From: Verrucomicrobiia bacterium
GTDB lineage: Bacteria > Verrucomicrobiota > Verrucomicrobiia > Verrucomicrobiales > Akkermansiaceae
NCBI GenBank assembly: GCA_030430455.1
Contig: JAUIJB010000001.1
Location: 35,219 to 99,218, forward strand
Length of the DNA stretch: 64,000 nucleotides
Direction: 5' to 3'
Part shown: positions 22,723 through 32,404 of the stretch, piece after piece
How the letters are laid out: each line of letters opens with the position of its first letter
Numbering within the stretch: the stretch's first letter is position 1
Notes under the pieces: generated by a model
The model's database searches: none
Seen by the model: the letters and a program-made list of their open reading frames with translations, nothing else
What the model was told of the DNA's origin: nothing
Program-made: the position numbers and the translations under genes

Positions 22723-22812
22723 GGGCAGGTGCCAGAGTGGTCGAATGGGCTCGCCTGGAAAGCGTGTGTGCTGGAAACAGTACCGAGGGTTCGAATCCCT
22801 CCCTGTCCGCCA
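22723..22812 (+). tRNA. tRNA-Ser (anticodon GGA), class II with long variable arm, CCA encoded
   Basis: Acceptor GGGCAGG/CCTGTCC (one G-U pair). D stem CCA/TGG. Anticodon loop CTGGAAA. Variable arm CTG-GAAA-CAG. T arm GAGGG-TTCGAAT-CCCTC. One T-T mismatch in the anticodon stem. Confidence 0.82.
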
Positions 22813-23094
22813 TTTTTCGCCCGAGGAGGGCGAAAAATGCCCGCCGGAGCCTTGGCGAAGGAGGGTGGGCCCGCCTTGCCGCTGAAGTCCATCCGGGAAT
22901 GGATGGCGTCGGCCTCAGGCGCGGCCCCCGAGCGAAGCCGGGCAGGGGGGGTGATGGCTATCGGGGGGGGGCCGTCCCTCCCCGGAGCCCGCGGATGCGG
23001 GAGGGGGTTTGAGTGCAGCAAGCCGTCCTTGACGGCGGCGTGGTTCGGCGAGCGTAAGCGAGCGCGACTGGCATGGCCGGAGCGAAGCGGAGGC

Positions 23095-23126
23095 AATCCC
23101 TCCCTGTCCGCTATCTTTCGCCCGAG
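23095..23126 (+). repeat. direct repeat of the tRNA-Ser 3' end plus flank (att-like)
   Basis: AATCCCTCCCTGTCCGCTATCTTTCGCCCGAG versus 22794-22825 AATCCCTCCCTGTCCGCCATTTTTCGCCCGAG; 30/32 identical. Confidence 0.8.
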
Positions 23127-23448: not shown

Positions 23449-24006
23449 TCAGCGGTTCCCGTTCGCGGATCCCGGCGTCGGCTGGCAGCACCGGCAGCGG
23501 CAGAGATTTCCGATGTGGCCGGTGACCAGGAGGAGCCCGCCGAGGGTGGTAAGGATGCTGGCGGCGGGGATTTGGAGATGTCGCTTGCCTTCTTCGTCCA
23601 CCTGCAGCGAGGGGCAGCAGGAGTCCGCGCAAGCGGCAGCCGCCGTGGCGGGTTCAGGGACGAGGGACGGGGCGGCGGCCCCGAGCAGCACGAAGGCGAT
23701 GCCGCCGATACCGGCGGCCACGACCCATTTCCGGCGGTGCCGGGCGAAGCCCCGGGCCAACATCCATGCCGCGAGCGGGACGACGAAGAGGGCCGCGGCC
23801 CAGTGTGCGGCGGGATGGGCCCACACCCTTCCGAAACCCGGCAGCACGAGGAGAAGAACCGGCGTGAGCGCGCAGTGGATGGCGCACAGGACGGAGGCGA
23901 CGATTCCGATCCGGTCGCCCCGCTTCGAGGGGCTGCTGGAGTCGATGCTACGTCCCAGCGCGCCGGTGGCGGGCAGGTTCGAGGAGTCGAAAGAGGGAGA
24001 AATCAT
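23449..24006 (-). CDS. MerC-domain membrane protein with Cys-rich C-terminus
   Basis: Start at MISPSF. IVASVLCAIHCALTPVLLLVLP is a MerC-type first helix. Four TM spans. CADSCCPSLQ and NLCRCRCCQ clusters. Confidence 0.65.
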   Translation of the reverse strand: MISPSFDSSNLPATGALGRSIDSSSPSKRGDRIGIVASVLCAIHCALTPVLLLVLPGFGRVWAHPAAHWAAALFVVPLAAWMLARGFARHRRKWVVAAGIGGIAFVLLGAAAPSLVPEPATAAAACADSCCPSLQVDEEGKRHLQIPAASILTTLGGLLLVTGHIGNLCRCRCCQPTPGSANGNR

Positions 24007-24068
24007 GCCGTCGAAGGGTCGTGCTGATGACGCGGGATGTGGGTTTTCATGGACCGAGGGAAGGCGGA

Positions 24069-24659
24069 TCACGCGCGGAAATGGCGGACACGCGGGGTCG
24101 CCGTCGGATCGCCACGATAGATTCCGAGCCACTTCATGGCATCGACGGGAGGAAGGGCGGAGCGAGACCGGGGGAGGCGACGATAGCTGCGGAAGCAGCG
24201 CTCACGATACGCCCCCCCCTGGGCGCGCTGGACGTCCTCTTCGTAGTGGATCCACCAGTCGAGGAAGGGCCGCGCACGCTTGTGGGCCTGGCCGGGATGG
24301 AGCCGCTTCAGGCGCTCCGATTCCCAGCGACCGGGGACCGGGGGCTGCCCGCCGGACCAGTGGTAGCAGCGGTCGAGCGGGCGGATGAAGACGAAGCCGC
24401 CGGAGTCGGCATACCAGCCCACGCAGGCGCCATGGAGCTCGATCCGCCCGCCTTGCCAGCTCATCGAGTAGCAGCTCGAGCCCTGGAGACCCGCGGAGCG
24501 CCGTTTCTCCAGCCCGTTGGCGATCAGGAGGTTTCCCGACGGATGGCTGACATCCCGTCCCCAGAAATACATCTGCTGACGAAGGACGGCCACCAAGTCC
24601 CGCAGCTGGCCGGTTTGGGGAGAGCCGGGAGTCGAGGGCGAATGCGACGCTCTGGGCAT
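24069..24659 (-). CDS. hypothetical Trp/Arg-rich protein, no recognisable domain
   Basis: 196-aa ORF with GC3-rich codon usage on the same strand as the helicases. An AT-rich tract with TTGACT lies upstream. Confidence 0.5.
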   Translation of the reverse strand: MPRASHSPSTPGSPQTGQLRDLVAVLRQQMYFWGRDVSHPSGNLLIANGLEKRRSAGLQGSSCYSMSWQGGRIELHGACVGWYADSGGFVFIRPLDRCYHWSGGQPPVPGRWESERLKRLHPGQAHKRARPFLDWWIHYEEDVQRAQGGAYRERCFRSYRRLPRSRSALPPVDAMKWLGIYRGDPTATPRVRHFRA

Positions 24660-24886
24660 GAAGCGAACTAGAGCCTCTCGGCAAAAAACGCAAAAAAATT
24701 ACAAAGTCAAATGGAGTGCATGTGCTTCGCCTGCTCCCCGTGCATCACCCCTTGAGAATGCTCGATTCACGCGACGGGATCGCCCTGTTCGCCCTTCATT
24801 CTCCGGCGCGCCGATCCATCAACTCGGGTTCGCCGAAGCACCCGTGGCTGAGCCTTTCTCGGGGGCTGAGGGCCGATGATGGTGCT

Positions 24887-26866
24887 TCAGGCTTCCCAGT
24901 GCTCCGACAGGATCACCAAGCGCCGCCCGGCGCGGGTGCAGCCCATGTAGAGCCGGCGGGTGTGGTCGGCGGCGAGCTCGGCGCGGGCGGGTTCATCGAG
25001 GCGCGGGTCGCCCTCCCGCTCGAGCAGCCCGTCGACGCCGAGCAGGAAGACCACCGCGGCCTCAAGGCCGGTGGCCGAGGTGAGCCGCGACACCGCACAG
25101 AAGCGGTCGACCGGTTGGGCCTGGCGCTCGTCGAGGTCGGCCACGGCCGAGTCGCCGAGTCGATGCCGCAAGGCGCCGACCAAGCCGCGGGTTGCCAGGC
25201 TGTCGGCGTGGAGCAGGAGCACGCTGCCGGCGAGGTGGGGGCTCTGTTCGCGGAGCTTCGCGACTTCGTCGACGGCCCGCCGCAGCGCTTCCTGGCCGCC
25301 GACCGACAGCAGCTCGGGCGGCTCGCCGGCCTCGTCGGTGGCCGCCAGCTCGTCGTCGCTCGGCGGATCGAGGTCGTCGATGCTCCCGGGGTGGAGGGTC
25401 CGGCGGCGTTCGACCAGACCGCGGGCGAACTCGAGGATGGCGCGGGTCGAGCGGTAGGGTCGTCCGAGCCGACTCGAGCGGCCGCGCACCTCGATGCCGG
25501 CGGCCGACCAGCTCTCGCGCCGCTTCAGGAAGCCCTGGGTCGGGTCGGCGGCGAGGAACAGCTGTCCGCCGGGACGCAGCGCCGCCAACACGGGCTCGAA
25601 CCAGACCTTGGCGAAGAACTGGGCCTCGTCGACGAAGATGAAGTCGTAGCTCGGCAGGGACTCGGGATGGCTGCGGGCGTGGTTGCGGAAGCGCAGGGCC
25701 TGCTCGTGCCAGTCGCTCTCGCCGAGACGGGCCATGTCCGCCCGGTGGCGCTCGAGCAGCTCCCAGACCTTCTCCCGCGCGCCCGTGCTCAGCGCCATCA
25801 CCCGGCCGCTGCGTTCCAGCGCCTGGTATTCCTCCAGGCTTTCCACGCCGAGGTCGCGCAGGTAGCCGATCTCCTCGGCGACGAAGCTCGCGCCCAGCCG
25901 GCCCAGGTCGATTTCCCGCATCAGCGCCTCGACGCGCCGCTCGACCGCCCACGCCGAGAGCACCCGCTCCGGCCAGTTCCTCGACTGGCGGCGTGCCCAG
26001 GCGAAGAAGGTGCGCCACTCGATCCTCCTCGTGGCGCCCGCGGTGAGCTGGAAGCGGCGCTCGAGCTCGCTGTTGATCGGTCGGTTGTGGGTCAGCACCA
26101 GCACCCGCGCCGAGCGATTCAGCCGCGCCACCAGCAGGGCACGATGGAGCAGCACCAGCGACTTGCCGCAGCCGGCCGGCCCGGTCACCAGGCGGGTGTC
26201 GAATCGCCGCGCCTCCCGCTCCAGCTCGGCGGGGAGCTCGAGCTCGATCTTGGCCAGCGCCTCCTGACCGAGGTCGAGAAAGGCCGGTGGCAGGGCGCCG
26301 GCGTCGCCGCGCCGGGCCAGGGGAACTCGTGCCGGCGAGTGCGCGATCACCGACTCCGGCGTGAACCGCCGGCGCAGCTGGATGAGCACGGGGTCCGCGA
26401 CGGCGGCGCCCGCGAGGGCCACCAGGCGAGCCTGGAAGTCGGCGGGGTTGCGCTGCTTGAGGCCGAGGAAGACGACCCCGCTATCGGCCGAGCGCAGCTC
26501 CTCGACCTCGTCGATCGTGCCGGCGTCAACATTGGGAAAGGCCACCAGGCAGCGGACCCCGGGGTCGCGCCGGCCGCCCAGCGCGGCGTGGAACCCGGCG
26601 AGGTCGCCGAGCTGCTCCACCGGCACCTGCTCCTCCTCGAGGAAGGACGGCTGCAGGGCGGTCTCGGCCAATTCCTGCGAGGTCCCGGCCACCCGGATCA
26701 GGAAGGCGTGGCGGCGGCGCCAGAGGACCAGGAAGGCCGGTCCCTCGCCGTCCCCGAGCCGGGTCCACACGGTGAAGTCGTCGTCGAGCCGCTTCAACAG
26801 ACGGAACATCACCTGCACCGCCATCGGCGCGGTCGAGAGCGGCCTGTTGGGGATCATCGTGGCCAT
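24887..26866 (-). CDS. SF1A UvrD-like helicase with degenerate NERD-like N-terminal domain
   Basis: N-terminus MIPNRPL...FLVLWRRRHAFLIRVAG has a NERD-like layout, but the EVK position reads IRV. Walker A GPAGCGKS, FIFVDEAQ, DPTQ, YRSTRAILEFA, LYMGCTRAGRRLVI. Confidence 0.85.
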   Translation of the reverse strand: MATMIPNRPLSTAPMAVQVMFRLLKRLDDDFTVWTRLGDGEGPAFLVLWRRRHAFLIRVAGTSQELAETALQPSFLEEEQVPVEQLGDLAGFHAALGGRRDPGVRCLVAFPNVDAGTIDEVEELRSADSGVVFLGLKQRNPADFQARLVALAGAAVADPVLIQLRRRFTPESVIAHSPARVPLARRGDAGALPPAFLDLGQEALAKIELELPAELEREARRFDTRLVTGPAGCGKSLVLLHRALLVARLNRSARVLVLTHNRPINSELERRFQLTAGATRRIEWRTFFAWARRQSRNWPERVLSAWAVERRVEALMREIDLGRLGASFVAEEIGYLRDLGVESLEEYQALERSGRVMALSTGAREKVWELLERHRADMARLGESDWHEQALRFRNHARSHPESLPSYDFIFVDEAQFFAKVWFEPVLAALRPGGQLFLAADPTQGFLKRRESWSAAGIEVRGRSSRLGRPYRSTRAILEFARGLVERRRTLHPGSIDDLDPPSDDELAATDEAGEPPELLSVGGQEALRRAVDEVAKLREQSPHLAGSVLLLHADSLATRGLVGALRHRLGDSAVADLDERQAQPVDRFCAVSRLTSATGLEAAVVFLLGVDGLLEREGDPRLDEPARAELAADHTRRLYMGCTRAGRRLVILSEHWEA

Positions 26867-26869
26867 GGC

Positions 26870-28636
26870 TTATCGGCGTCGGATCACGGCCTCCGGCGCG
26901 ACGCTCCGGCACCAGGATGAGAAGCAGGTCGCGCCCTCGTCGCCCGCGTCGGCCAGCGACTCGGCGGTCGCCAGCAGGCCCTCGGAGGCGACGACCACCA
27001 CCTTGCGCCGCGCGCGGGTGACGGCGACGTTCCAGCGCTCCCGCTGGAACAGGAAACCGGCCATGCGCCGCACCCACTCCGGCTTGGACGAGGCGAGCGA
27101 GACCACGATCACCTCGCGCTCCTGGCCCTGGAAGCGCTCGACCGTGTCCACGGTCACCCGGCCGGCCGTGGTGGTGCCGTCGTACGGGATCCGTAGGAGT
27201 TGGCGGATCCTCGCGGCCTGCGCCCGGAAGGGCGTGATGATGCCGACCTCCTCCGGCGCCAGCCCGCCGCCGACCAGGGCCCGGACGAGGTCCGCCGTTT
27301 CCTGCGCCTCGCCGGCGGACATCACCGAGCTTCCCTTGACCTCCTCGTCGTCCCGAACCACCAGGGCGACCGCGGCCGGGGTGGCGAGGGCCGGGTGGTC
27401 GGAGGGCGGCGCGAGGGTGAGCCTGCGGTCGTGACGGCAGCTCAGCCGGCCGCGGTAGAAGGTCACCGACGGCCACTCGGCCAGCTCGGCGTTGAGGCGC
27501 CAGGTCTCCTCCAGCATGCTGTCGAAGTCGCGGTTCCTGAGGAGGCCGAAGACGGACCGCTCGCGCGCCGGGCGGCCGTCGTCGACCAGCAGCACCGGCG
27601 GAAGCTGGTGGTCGTCGCCGAAGAACAGCCAGCGCTCGCCGTGGAGCATCGCCATCACCGCCACCATCGGGGTGACCTGCGAGGCCTCGTCGACGACGAC
27701 CGTGTCGAAGCGGGCCTCGCACAGCCCGGTGCCCGGCGAGCCAAGGGCGAAGGGGGTCGCGCCGATCACGTGGGGCTCGGCCGACTCCAGCAGGCCGCTC
27801 TCGGCGTAGCTCTCGAAGGACTCGACGGATTCCGGTCCGCGCAGGACCGGCCCGATCTTCGCCACCCGGACCGCCGCGGGCAGGGCCCTGCGGCAGCTCT
27901 CCAGGGCGTGGCCGATCGCCCGGTGGGTCGGCCCGGTCACCAGCACCCGCTCGCCGCGCTCGACCAGCCGGCGCACCACCTCGGCGAGCACGTGGGTCTT
28001 TCCGGTTCCCGGCGGCCCCTGGACGAGCCAGGCGTTGCGGGTGGCCACGCAGGCTTCGATCGCCTCCTTCTGCGAGTCGTGCCAGAGCGGGTCGTTGACC
28101 TCGTCGTCGAGTTCGTCGGCCACGGCGGCGAAGGTCTCGCCATCGATCTCGCCCTGCTCGTCGCCCATCAGCAGCGGCAGGATCCGCTCGCGTCCCAGGG
28201 CGGTCCCGGCGAGCCCCTCCATGGCGGCGGCGTAGCGTTCGGTGAGGTCGACATGGTCGCGGTCCATCACCCGGTCGCGGCTCCCCGGCGGCGGGAGCGA
28301 GCCGCGCCAGCGGTGCAGGTGGATGCCGTCGTCGTCCTCGCCCAGGTGGATGAACTTGCCCTCGGGCGCCCAGGGGGTGTCGCTGCTCAGGCCGACGAAG
28401 TCGCCCTCGCGCAGGCGGCACTCCCCGCTCTCGTCCTCATGAACCGGCCGCAGCACCACGCGGTCCTGGCAAACCCTCACCACCTCCAGGGGGCCGAGCG
28501 CGTGACCCTCACGAATCCGCTCGGCAAGGGGGGTGTTCCAGATTTCCTCGATGCCCCGCCGCCCGGCCGCCAGTTCACGCCGCCAGCCCTGGTCGAGTTC
28601 ATCGAGCCATTCGCGCTGTTCCTCGGCGCTTGCCAT
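26870..28636 (-). CDS. SF1B Upf1/IGHMBP2/DNA2-like helicase (AAA_11/AAA_12 type) with N-terminal barrel-like domain
   Basis: GPPGTGKTH, VVDEASQ, FGDDHQLPPV, ERFQGQEREVIVVS, NVAVTRARRKVVVV. N-terminal LREGDFVGLS segment. Its stop is 3 nt before the downstream helicase ATG. Confidence 0.85.
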   Translation of the reverse strand: MASAEEQREWLDELDQGWRRELAAGRRGIEEIWNTPLAERIREGHALGPLEVVRVCQDRVVLRPVHEDESGECRLREGDFVGLSSDTPWAPEGKFIHLGEDDDGIHLHRWRGSLPPPGSRDRVMDRDHVDLTERYAAAMEGLAGTALGRERILPLLMGDEQGEIDGETFAAVADELDDEVNDPLWHDSQKEAIEACVATRNAWLVQGPPGTGKTHVLAEVVRRLVERGERVLVTGPTHRAIGHALESCRRALPAAVRVAKIGPVLRGPESVESFESYAESGLLESAEPHVIGATPFALGSPGTGLCEARFDTVVVDEASQVTPMVAVMAMLHGERWLFFGDDHQLPPVLLVDDGRPARERSVFGLLRNRDFDSMLEETWRLNAELAEWPSVTFYRGRLSCRHDRRLTLAPPSDHPALATPAAVALVVRDDEEVKGSSVMSAGEAQETADLVRALVGGGLAPEEVGIITPFRAQAARIRQLLRIPYDGTTTAGRVTVDTVERFQGQEREVIVVSLASSKPEWVRRMAGFLFQRERWNVAVTRARRKVVVVASEGLLATAESLADAGDEGATCFSSWCRSVAPEAVIRRR

Positions 28637-31023: not shown

Positions 31024-32059
31024 ATGGCGAGGGCGCGGTGGATTGCTCCGTGGAGCGAGTCGGGGGTCAAACCGGCGGTGTATCACCTGATTTCACGGGT
31101 GGTGGAGCGGCGCTTTGCCTTCGGGGCGGAGGAAAAGGAGAAGTTCCGCACCCTGATGCGCATGACCGAGAACTTCACCGGTTGTCGGGTGCTGAGCTAC
31201 TGCATCATGTCCGCCCAAGGGTGCCCTGGTGCTTTCCGACGAGGACCTGCTGCGCCGCGTCGCGGTGTTTTACCCGAAGTGGAAGGTCGCCGAGCTGAGG
31301 GAACGGCTCGCGGCGGCAGCGGACTCGCCGGCGCTGCACGCGGAACTGGTCGAGGCCTACGCCTACCGAATGCACGACCTCAGCGAGTTCATGAAGATGC
31401 TGCTGCAGCGCTTCAGCTCTTGGTTCAACCGTCGGCACGAGCGTCGCGGACGGCTGTGGGAGCAGCGCTTCAAGAGCGTGCTGGTGGAGGACGGGACGGC
31501 GGCGCGGACGATGGCCGCCTACATCGACCTCAACCCGGTGCGAGGCGGGATCTGCCAGGATCCGGCGGACTACCGCTGGAGCAGCTACGGCGAGGCGGTG
31601 GCGGGGGGACGAAGGGCGCGGGCCGGTTTGGTGCGGGCGTGGCGCGGTCACGAGGGGGTGACGGGCACGGCGCGCGGCTGGGCGCAGGGCGGGCTGTCGC
31701 GACAGTACCGCCAGGTGCTGCTCGGGAAGGTCCTGAAGGAGCGGGAGGATGGCGAGGTCGGTGTCCGAGGAAGCCGGGGAAGCCGGGCAATGGCGGTGGA
31801 GCGGACCGGTCGGGAGCGAGGGGAACTCGATGCCAACGCGGGGGACCTGCGGATCTCGCAGGTGGTCCGGCATCGGGTGCGCTACTTCACCGACGGTGCG
31901 GTGATCGGCGGGCGGGGCTTCGTCGAGGAGGTCTTCGAGAGGTGCCGGGAGTACTTCGGCCCGAAGCGGAGGTTGGGAGCGAGGAAACCCCGAGGTGCCT
32001 TGGGAGCGCTGGCTGGAGAGGTTTGGACAGCGCGGGATCTTCGGCTCGGGGTGGATTGA
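31024..32059 (+). pseudogene. IS200/IS605-like (RAYT-type Y1) transposase, frameshifted, HUH region deleted
   Basis: Frame 1 MARARW...YHLISRVVERRFAF...VLSYCIMS breaks at ~31212. It continues in the +1 frame as PPKGALVLSDEDLL...RGRLWEQRFKSVLVED...YIDLNPVRGG...YRWSSY. The expected NHFH motif after CIMS is missing. Confidence 0.65.
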
Positions 32060-32189
32060 GCGGGCGGTCCCGATGAAGCCGGTGCCATCTGATGGCGCCG
32101 TGGTCCGTGGCGTCGATTGGCCAAGCACTCCCCCTGGAGTTGCCCGCGCTGGGTCGCGCAAGTGTTTGGTCACCGGTGGAAGCACTCTC

Positions 32190-32404
32190 GCCGAATGGCT
32201 GCAGCTTTTTCGCAGGACGCCTGCCAAGTCCTGCGTGACCATGCTGTCGGCATGAAGCAGCAGCAAGCTGCCCGCCAGGTGGCGTGAAACCTTCCTCAGC
32301 TTTGCAATCTCATCGACGGCGCGTCGGAGCGGTTGCTGGCCGCCGCTTCGCAAGACCGCCGGCCGATGGCCCTCCTCCTTGGTGGCGGTGAGCCCGACGA
32401 CCCC
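32190..32404 (-). pseudogene. relic of a second NERD/UvrD-like helicase copy
   Basis: GLTATKEEGHRPAVLRSGGQQPLRRAVDEIAKLRKVSRHLAGSLLLLHADSMVTQDLAGVLRKS aligns by eye with ELAATDEAGEPPELLSVGGQEALRRAVDEVAKLREQSPHLAGSVLLLHADSLATRGLVGALRHR of the 24887..26866 product. Bounded by an in-frame TAG. Confidence 0.6.

Follow-up and report, generated by a model that had tools for sequence, protein, structure and literature searches.

A fixed pair of SF1B-like and SF1A-like helicase genes shared by several bacterial phyla as a candidate two-motor DNA machine

A 64,000-nt stretch of a Verrucomicrobiia bacterium genome (GCA_030430455.1, contig JAUIJB010000001.1, positions 35,219-99,218), called the window throughout, carries two superfamily 1 (SF1) helicase genes that lie one behind the other on the minus strand. 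The first gene of the pair, designated helB (26870..28636), encodes a 588-aa predicted SF1B helicase and the second, helA (24887..26866), encodes a 659-aa protein with a UvrD-like, putative SF1A core at residues ~200-659; the helicase motifs of both are intact. The locus raises the question of whether these genes are neighbors by accident or form a single unit and, if the latter, whether that unit is a known system and on which DNA it would act. Because the two genes were found to keep each other's company in several phyla, and often have known anti-virus genes as neighbors, they probably specify an unnamed two-motor machine. That helB and helA encode subunits of one dual-motor SF1 machine, most likely acting on invading DNA, is a proposal whose chances we judge to be about even.

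The stop codon of helB (TAA, 26872-26870) and the start codon of helA (ATG, 26866-26864) are separated by the 3-nt spacer gcc, and the junction (26864..26872, minus strand), read directly, is cgaTAAgccATGgcc. The arrangement is tight enough to imply translational coupling, and a scan around helB and helA for promoters and terminators found none. An earlier note on this DNA had described two complete, back-to-back SF1 helicase genes with a 3-nt spacer, which is what the open reading frames (ORFs) and the junction show. The motifs that it quoted are all present in the translations: GPPGTGKT, VVDEASQ, GDDHQLPPV, FQGQEREVIVVS and NVAVTRAR in helB, and GPAGCGKS, FVDEAQ, DPTQ, YRSTR and YMGCTRA in helA.

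A scan of genomes with a helA pattern matched 354 of 185,579 species in few phyla, and the best 80 loci, which came from Verrucomicrobiales, Opitutales, Chthoniobacterales and many Chloroflexota, were used for comparison. Upstream DNA was present in 77 of the 80 and 73 junctions were scored. In ~73 of the 77 loci, belonging to Verrucomicrobiota and Chloroflexota, helB lay immediately upstream of helA on the same strand. The median distance from the helB stop to the helA start was 3 nt, with a gap of no more than 10 nt or an overlap in 59 of the 73 junctions and an overlap in 17. The pairwise-distance matrices of the two proteins were closely correlated (r=0.93), and none of 999 permutations gave a value as high. 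The two genes are thus inherited as one co-evolving unit with a fixed order, and the co-conservation on which the earlier note had staked its idea holds across loci in order, spacing and co-evolution. The only point in favor of a chance adjacency of two unrelated helicase genes in this genome is the prior that helicase genes are common. Since order, spacing and co-evolution are kept across Verrucomicrobiota, Chloroflexota and Gammaproteobacteria, such an accident is extremely improbable, and it was rejected on the pairing frequency, the median gap and the correlation given above.

The pairing was broken in L063, where helB was reduced to a 40-aa remnant, in L043, which was cut short, and in L028, where a 276-aa Uma2/DUF4058-like ORF stood between helB and helA; L074 was left unscored, its computed junction being an artefact. 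The intervening ORF of L028 (7127-7957) has the motif VIEVLSPANK, is a putative endonuclease, and lies in the sole large helB-helA gap (913 nt).

All-versus-all ORF clustering of the 80 loci found no third conserved component; helB and helA were the only conserved genes, apart from alternative-frame shadows. Across 74 helB-helA pairs from three phyla, over which motif conservation was read, Walker A, motif II, motif III and the arginine-finger motifs are kept in both proteins, and neither motor is predicted to be a dead scaffold, unlike AddB. The family can be defined as an Upf1-like helicase of ~575-610 aa followed within a few nucleotides by a protein of ~640-700 aa that combines an N-domain with a UvrD-like helicase. 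This arrangement was found in the window, in 73 further loci and in Vibrio, Hahella and Xenorhabdus.

The helB protein matched the Pfam families AAA_11 (1e-25) and AAA_12 (5e-34). Its AlphaFold2 (AF2) model (predicted local distance difference test, pLDDT, 88; predicted template modeling score, pTM, 0.88) is confident and shows, after a long helix at the N terminus, a barrel of six strands, the stalk helices and a pair of RecA domains, and the top Foldseek matches of the model were Dna2 (5ean; E 1e-35, TMq 0.75), IGHMBP2 (4b3g; TMq 0.78) and Upf1. A profile of 16 helB homologs, compared with the PDB, matched mouse DNA2 over profile positions 21-547, as well as IGHMBP2, Upf1 and Sen1. The alignment with Dna2 was confined to residues 454-1021 of that protein, and the nuclease lies outside the aligned part. 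Because the Pfam, PDB profile, AF2 and Foldseek results agree, helB is classified as an SF1B helicase of the Upf1/Dna2 type, predicted to have neither the Dna2 nuclease nor the Upf1 CH domain.

The N-terminal region of helB (residues 1-185; 28082..28636, minus strand) is modeled as a helix, a six-strand 1B-like β-barrel and stalk helices that precede RecA domain 1A. In the AF2 model the first helix spans residues 4-33, the strands residues 46-56, 59-64, 80-84, 93-101, 104-112 and 122-126, and the stalk helical segment residues 132-178. The helices and the barrel are covered by the structural alignments with Dna2, IGHMBP2 and Upf1, in agreement with the barrel-like N-domain that had been proposed to precede the Upf1/IGHMBP2/DNA2-type motifs. 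Two motifs in this region, W33-x2-P36 and R76-E77-G-D79, are conserved, Vibrio included, and the Walker A, DEAxQ, QLPPV, QGQERE and TRAR motifs are invariant or near-invariant across the 74 pairs.

The Pfam matches of helA were weak (AAA_19 and UvrD). A helA profile compared with the PDB matched UvrD (7.6e-15) and also PcrA, and the top Foldseek matches of its mediocre AF2 model (pLDDT 72) were UvrD, PcrA and Rep at a fold TM of ~0.4, with AddAB and AdnAB as distant fold matches. The sequence and the model thus weakly resemble UvrD/PcrA. The GxAGxGKS, DEAQFF, ADPTQGF, YRxT, GLE and TRA motifs are invariant in 74 of 74 sequences.

The N-domain of helA (residues 1-190; 26297..26866, minus strand) is a family-specific α/β domain in which the catalytic residues of PD-(D/E)xK nucleases are absent. 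In the AF2 model its elements follow the order α-β-β-β-α-β, which is reminiscent of these nucleases; the likeness is only suggestive, and the domain is possibly a degenerate PD-(D/E)xK fold. The invariant P43 is followed by aspartate in only 26 of 74 sequences and by alanine in the window, and the positions corresponding to ExK read R-V-A in the window and K/Q/A-V-A/S elsewhere among the 74 sequences. If this is a nuclease fold, it would appear to be catalytically dead across the whole family. The earlier note had read IRV at the EVK-type position and suspected inactivity; the segment is FLIRVAG, and the suspicion fits the family-wide loss of catalytic residues. Its description of the domain as NERD-like was not upheld. 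The NERD family (PF08378) was not matched by any of five helA N-domains, even at E<=10, and a profile of 45 helA N-domain sequences found nothing significant in the PDB. With the D...(D/E)xK residues missing as well, the NERD assignment was set aside as an unproven resemblance.

The helA type forms a sizeable unnamed family, since an exhaustive profile search gave 986 clusters at 50% identity (E<=1e-30), and its clades broadly track taxonomy. A tblastn search of plasmids found a distant cassette in Vibrio, in which a helB-like gene of 575 aa, 33% identical over its full length with the barrel motifs included, is followed after 2-8 nt by a helA-like gene of ~650 aa with 29% identity. A search with the Vibrio helA recovered many Vibrio, together with Photobacterium, Moritella, Xenorhabdus, Plesiomonas, Thiolinea, Hahella and others. 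There was no E. coli homolog of the pair at the nucleotide level. A phage origin was set aside, no relatives being found in IMG/VR viral contigs or GenBank phages; that result is itself neutral.

The helB type also occurs outside the pair, since plasmid pFA5 of Fulvitalea axinellae carries a solo helB-like gene (L101, 7929-9743; 31% identity) with no helA-like neighbor; this plasmid match was therefore rejected as a cassette. Two copies of the cassette were observed on different contigs of one metagenome-assembled genome in Anaerolineales SJ819 (L059 and L061) and in Anaerolineae fen_1063 (L049 and L074). Between L059 and L061 each of the two proteins is ~94% identical, and either strain heterogeneity or a recent duplication may be involved. 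In Haloferula chungangensis (L001 and L012) a second copy of the final ~288 bp of helA lies 2.5 kb downstream at 90% nucleotide identity (L001, 11600-11977 and 14445-14733), with a 153-aa ORF and a 624-aa DUF7309/PRiA4_ORF3 gene between the copies. It looks as if DNA had been inserted in the 3' end of helA and had either carried a gene end with it or restored one.

What such a machine might do can be approached from its motor classes. The Upf1/Dna2 type translocates 5'->3' and the UvrD type 3'->5'. By family, helB would be expected to run 5'->3' and helA 3'->5', and because the two classes move in opposite directions a heterodimer could advance on the two strands of a duplex, starting from an end or a fork, in the manner of RecB plus RecD within RecBCD. 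The helA N-domain is more likely to be a nucleic-acid or partner-binding (sensor) module than a nuclease. The target, judged from the genomic associations described below, would be invading phage or plasmid DNA. As neither protein has a recognizable nuclease, one of three routes would have to account for protection: the ends or replication intermediates of the invader may be unwound or stripped, single-stranded DNA may be handed to cellular or neighboring nucleases (DISARM, Hhe, restriction-modification (RM) systems, McrBC), or nucleoside triphosphates (NTPs) may be consumed. Operonic links with DrmD and Hhe fit the second of these. In Verrucomicrobia the pair would be a long-resident chromosomal cassette. 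A defense role for the cassette is plausible. A bolder form of the proposal holds that the pair is a stand-alone, nuclease-free immune system, in which a bipolar heterodimer senses foreign ends or intermediates through the helA N-domain and stops the invader by unwinding, stripping or NTP exhaustion, the DISARM and Hhe systems having repeatedly recruited the motor; we hold this form tentatively, as possible rather than probable.

In the Gammaproteobacteria the surroundings of the pair have the character of mobile defense regions, and five of six sampled contexts were defense or toxin-antitoxin (TA) islands. On V. parahaemolyticus plasmid pVPTW011 the neighbors of the pair were an integrase, VapE, HNH, IS5 and an Abi-like gene, and on a V. 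nigripulchritudo plasmid they were RelE/ParE and HipA. The order in the V. lentus group was DUF2726, the pair, a type I RM system and McrBC, with Dnd upstream in one strain, while in V. vulnificus the pair was accompanied by a PLD-SNF2-S24 gene with a methyltransferase, HipBA and Wadjet. In Hahella (L103, 1-8115) SNF2, an Eco57I-type methyltransferase and GmrSD preceded the pair, and SymE and YafO toxins were also present. The context in Xenorhabdus was ordinary, with only an RHS and a SymE toxin nearby.

Beyond the Gammaproteobacteria, DrmD lay directly after helA in L057 (10049-15738) and L049, and L057 had DrmMI too (each E=0). In L088 (13849-17001), a metagenomic contig, a DrmD-like gene overlapped the helA stop and was followed by Gabija and DrmMI. 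The spacing between helA and DrmD suggests a shared operon. Hhe/PDC-S37 genes ended 4-13 nt before helB in L083 (4744-9996) and L068 (842-6202), and an LmuB/mad3-like ATPase neighbored the pair in L041.

These arrangements bear on a second explanation, that the pair is an add-on motor for restriction-type systems such as DISARM class 1, Hhe, type I RM or McrBC, to which it would supply end-loading or unwinding; it overlaps with the idea of a defense machine in its own right. The overlap of the DrmD start with the helA stop in L088, the DrmD genes straight after helA in L057 and L049, the Hhe/PDC-S37 genes just before helB in L083 and L068 and the Hahella gene order are all what an accessory motor would lead one to expect, as is the lack of any effector domain in the pair itself. 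However, the partners vary from locus to locus and are missing from most loci, and the window has only VapBC nearby. A module able to persist by itself in most genomes would presumably also do something independently. An accessory role of this kind is unlikely.

The idea that helB and helA form an anti-invader machine has to be weighed against several observations that count against it. The pair has no effector or nuclease. Most Verrucomicrobial loci, including the window, have ordinary neighbors. Strong PADLOC matches were found for only ~7 of 131 first neighbors and ~4 of 114 second neighbors in the Verrucomicrobiota and Chloroflexota; the survey, which combined a home-made gene caller based on the G+C content at third codon positions (GC3) with scans of pseudo-alignments of unrelated neighbors, is approximate, and four further MkoA matches among the first neighbors, which were helB itself mis-masked, are outside the ~7. 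The other neighbors were ordinary genes (glutamate synthase, ribosomal proteins, SecA, Hsp90, tRNA synthetases). RNase H-domain genes adjoined the pair in three Chloroflexota loci (L054, 2399-3256; L055, 411-683; L065, 10456-11937) and are the main hint of a connection with RNA-DNA hybrids or R-loops. A ~900-aa fusion of RMMBL (metallo-β-lactamase/β-CASP) and an ATP-dependent DNA ligase was encoded divergently from helB in four related Luteolibacter/Akkermansiaceae genomes (L024, L039, L042 and L044, about 3200-6450, minus strand). Genes for uracil-DNA glycosylase (UDG) and RecQ were near the pair in Haloferula, and a single-stranded DNA-binding protein (SSB) gene was found in two loci. Finally, the helA clades largely follow taxonomy and the GC3 of helB and helA (0.94 and 0.93) is like that of host genes (esterase 0.93, dnaK 0.97), which together point to long vertical residence. 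Such residence is unusual for defense genes.

The same observations are the substance of a third explanation, a housekeeping or accessory genome-maintenance module. Together with nucleases and ligases of the cell, the two helicases would deal with R-loops, with collisions between transcription and replication or with DNA ends, and their presence in defense islands would be incidental. Sen1/Upf1-like and UvrD/PcrA-like helicases do R-loop, conflict or DNA-end jobs elsewhere. Such a function accords with the ordinary genes around the pair at most loci of Verrucomicrobiota and Chloroflexota, with clades that track taxonomy, with a codon usage like that of the host and with the RNase H, RMMBL-ligase, UDG, RecQ and SSB genes at several loci. 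A housekeeping module would not, however, be expected to show the patchy spread over few phyla (354 of 185,579 species), a synteny that is unconserved even among close relatives, the occurrence of the pair on plasmids and beside integrases, the defense or TA islands in five of the six gammaproteobacterial contexts, the operonic arrangement with DrmD or Hhe at some loci, or the existence of relics and truncated copies. On balance a maintenance role is less likely than action against invaders, of which it is the main rival. The enrichment in defense islands that the earlier note had proposed to survey is a divided result: the Vibrio and Hahella islands, the plasmids and some links with DISARM, Hhe and Gabija support it, whereas in the window's own clades the neighbors are mostly ordinary.

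The proposal of an anti-invader machine gains little from the surroundings of the pair in the window. A tRNA-Ser(gga) gene (22723-22812) is followed by a 32-nt direct repeat of its 3' end (22794-22825 and 23095-23126; 94% identical, 301 nt apart), with no third copy in the window. The repeat brackets a ~270 bp non-coding remnant that contains no gene; the helicases are outside it, and it resembles what an integrative element would leave behind on excision or decay. No sharp boundary in GC content was found around the locus. Because the two copies are only 301 nt apart and there is no such boundary, an att-delimited island that includes the helicases was rejected. The tRNA-linked island of the earlier note does not stand as an argument for this locus: the tRNA-Ser gene and the repeat are real, but the repeat encloses ~270 bp and the codon usage of helB and helA is host-like.

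The earlier note had also listed a Trp-rich orphan ORF and a MerC-like gene after the pair. Both are present on the same strand. The former, orf196 (24069-24659, minus strand), has eight tryptophans in 196 residues and no family match in Pfam, PADLOC or NCBIfam; it is separated from helA by a 227-nt gap with an AT-rich stretch and overlaps by 64 nt the annotated GTG start of the MerC-like gene (23449-24132, minus strand). Neither recurs beside the pair in any of the 80 loci, and both were therefore dropped from the module. Judged by GC3, orf196 (0.81), merC (0.80) and vapB (0.81) look foreign, and because these values of ~0.80 differ from the 0.93-0.97 of helB, helA, the esterase and dnaK, orf196 and the MerC-like gene look like separately acquired DNA.

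The remaining features that had been listed around the pair were recovered: the IS3-type transposase fragment is an rve_3 integrase-core fragment, vapBC consists of a PIN/VapC gene preceded by a weak ribbon-helix-helix (RHH) VapB, the decayed Y1 transposase is a weak, frameshifted Y1_Tnp fragment, and a relic of a second helicase copy was found by tblastn against the window. The relic (32189..32392, minus strand) corresponds to residues 507-574 of helA at 60% identity, is non-functional and lies outside the active module, and its frame is surrounded by unrelated sequence. It adjoins the frameshifted Y1/IS200-like (RAYT-type) transposase (31024-32076, plus strand). The relic suggests that an older cassette was destroyed at this locus, a trace of past turnover. 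More generally, degenerate copies and relics indicate cassette turnover, and the flanks differ even among relatives that are 73-78% identical to the window pair.

If the role is defensive, the pair would represent a new, helicase-centered form of immunity, in which two SF1 motors of opposite class act without an effector nuclease in at least three phyla, and it could serve as a minimal model of bipolar translocation of the RecBCD kind. With a maintenance role it would be an unrecognized repair or R-loop machine of Verrucomicrobia and Chloroflexi. The strict pairing makes the hypothesis testable by cloning, and the Vibrio orthologs are in tractable hosts.

It remains to compare the pair with known systems. 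The earlier note had recognized no named system in it, which is borne out: PADLOC 2.0, a comparison that the note had itself proposed, NCBIfam 20 and Pfam gave only partial matches to the helicase cores, and a description of the pair was not found in the open-access literature, which is no proof of absence; the literature covered includes Shah 2018, the YprA/ARMADA preprint and the Nucleic Acids Research (NAR) 2026 domain-centric screen. The Vibrio pair showed the same partial pattern as that of the window.

Among individual helicases, the best structural matches of helB, with β-barrel and stalk included, are the eukaryotic/archaeal Dna2 and IGHMBP2/Upf1/Sen1 enzymes, to which it is ~20% identical. 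It differs from Dna2 in having no N-terminal Fe-S nuclease domain and from Upf1 in having no CH domain, and the IGHMBP2-family model TIGR00376 of NCBIfam gave 183 bits against a cut-off of 349. The relationship of helA to UvrD, PcrA and Rep is more remote; the uvrD and pcrA models of NCBIfam gave 20-30 bits against cut-offs above 900, and the helicase core of ~450 aa is much shorter than UvrD.

Mokosh, like helB, is built around an Upf1-like (AAA_11/AAA_12) helicase, and MkoA was the best PADLOC match of helB (8e-57). The match covered only the helicase core, at positions 787-1081 of the 1112 in the MkoA profile, and that of MkoC positions 772-949 of 1136. Unlike Mokosh, the pair has neither a phospholipase D (PLD) nuclease partner (MkoB) nor a PLD fusion (MkoC), and Mokosh was rejected since no PLDc domain occurs in helB, helA or conserved neighbors. 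Hhe consists of DUF4011, an Upf1-like helicase and a C-terminal Vsr/MTES_1575 nuclease in one protein of ~1800 aa. In contrast to Mokosh and Hhe, helB has no DUF4011 or MTES_1575 and is 588 aa rather than >1100 aa long. Hhe was rejected because helB matched only positions 1380-1424 of 1911, and the true Hhe/PDC-S37 genes are separate neighbors in L083 and L068.

Gabija, like the pair, has two genes, one of them a UvrD-like helicase (GajB), and senses DNA ends. The partner of helA, however, is a second helicase and not the GajA OLD/TOPRIM ATPase-nuclease. Gabija was rejected, since GajA is absent next to helA and the GajB hidden Markov models (HMMs) matched helA at 4.6e-7 or weaker; the bona fide Gabija beside the pair in L088 is a separate system. 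The best PADLOC match of helA was C3a187 (4e-23), labeled 'NERD+UvrD', which corresponds to cluster 187 among the candidate accessory genes of type III CRISPR in Shah et al. 2018 (PMC6546367). C3a187 and Nhi share with helA the layout of a small, N-terminal nuclease-like domain before a compact UvrD-type SF1 core, and the C3a187 match did not extend beyond the helicase half, its best stretch being positions 319-540 of 559. Nhi itself was rejected, as its HMM matched helA at 5e-5 over positions 259-343 of 470 only and the catalytic D/E/K residues are missing; Nhi is furthermore a single protein, whereas helA is paired with helB. DISARM class 1 (drmA, drmB, drmC, drmD, drmMI) was rejected because there are no Drm genes in the window, and adjacency to DrmD or DrmMI is limited to a minority of the relatives.

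The last comparison is with RecBCD, AddAB and AdnAB, of which the earlier note had called the pair a stripped-down form. The analogy fails at the nuclease, since neither protein has a RecB-family nuclease domain by Pfam or NCBIfam and both end with helicase motif VI. The pair also lacks counterparts of RecC and of the Chi-scanning element; helB is of the Upf1/Dna2 type rather than a RecD, the RecD/RecD2 models of NCBIfam giving 36-50 bits against cut-offs of 310-500; and the proteins, at 588 and 659 aa, are far smaller than those of RecBCD, AddAB or AdnAB. What stands of the analogy is the adjacency of SF1A and SF1B motors, by which the pair would work most like RecBCD among the known systems, while it also resembles helicase-centered defense systems. 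These complexes, too, are encoded by adjacent genes and contain an SF1A motor, joined in RecBCD by an SF1B motor, and RecBCD, which is bipolar and acts on DNA ends as is predicted for the helB-helA pair, also restricts phage.

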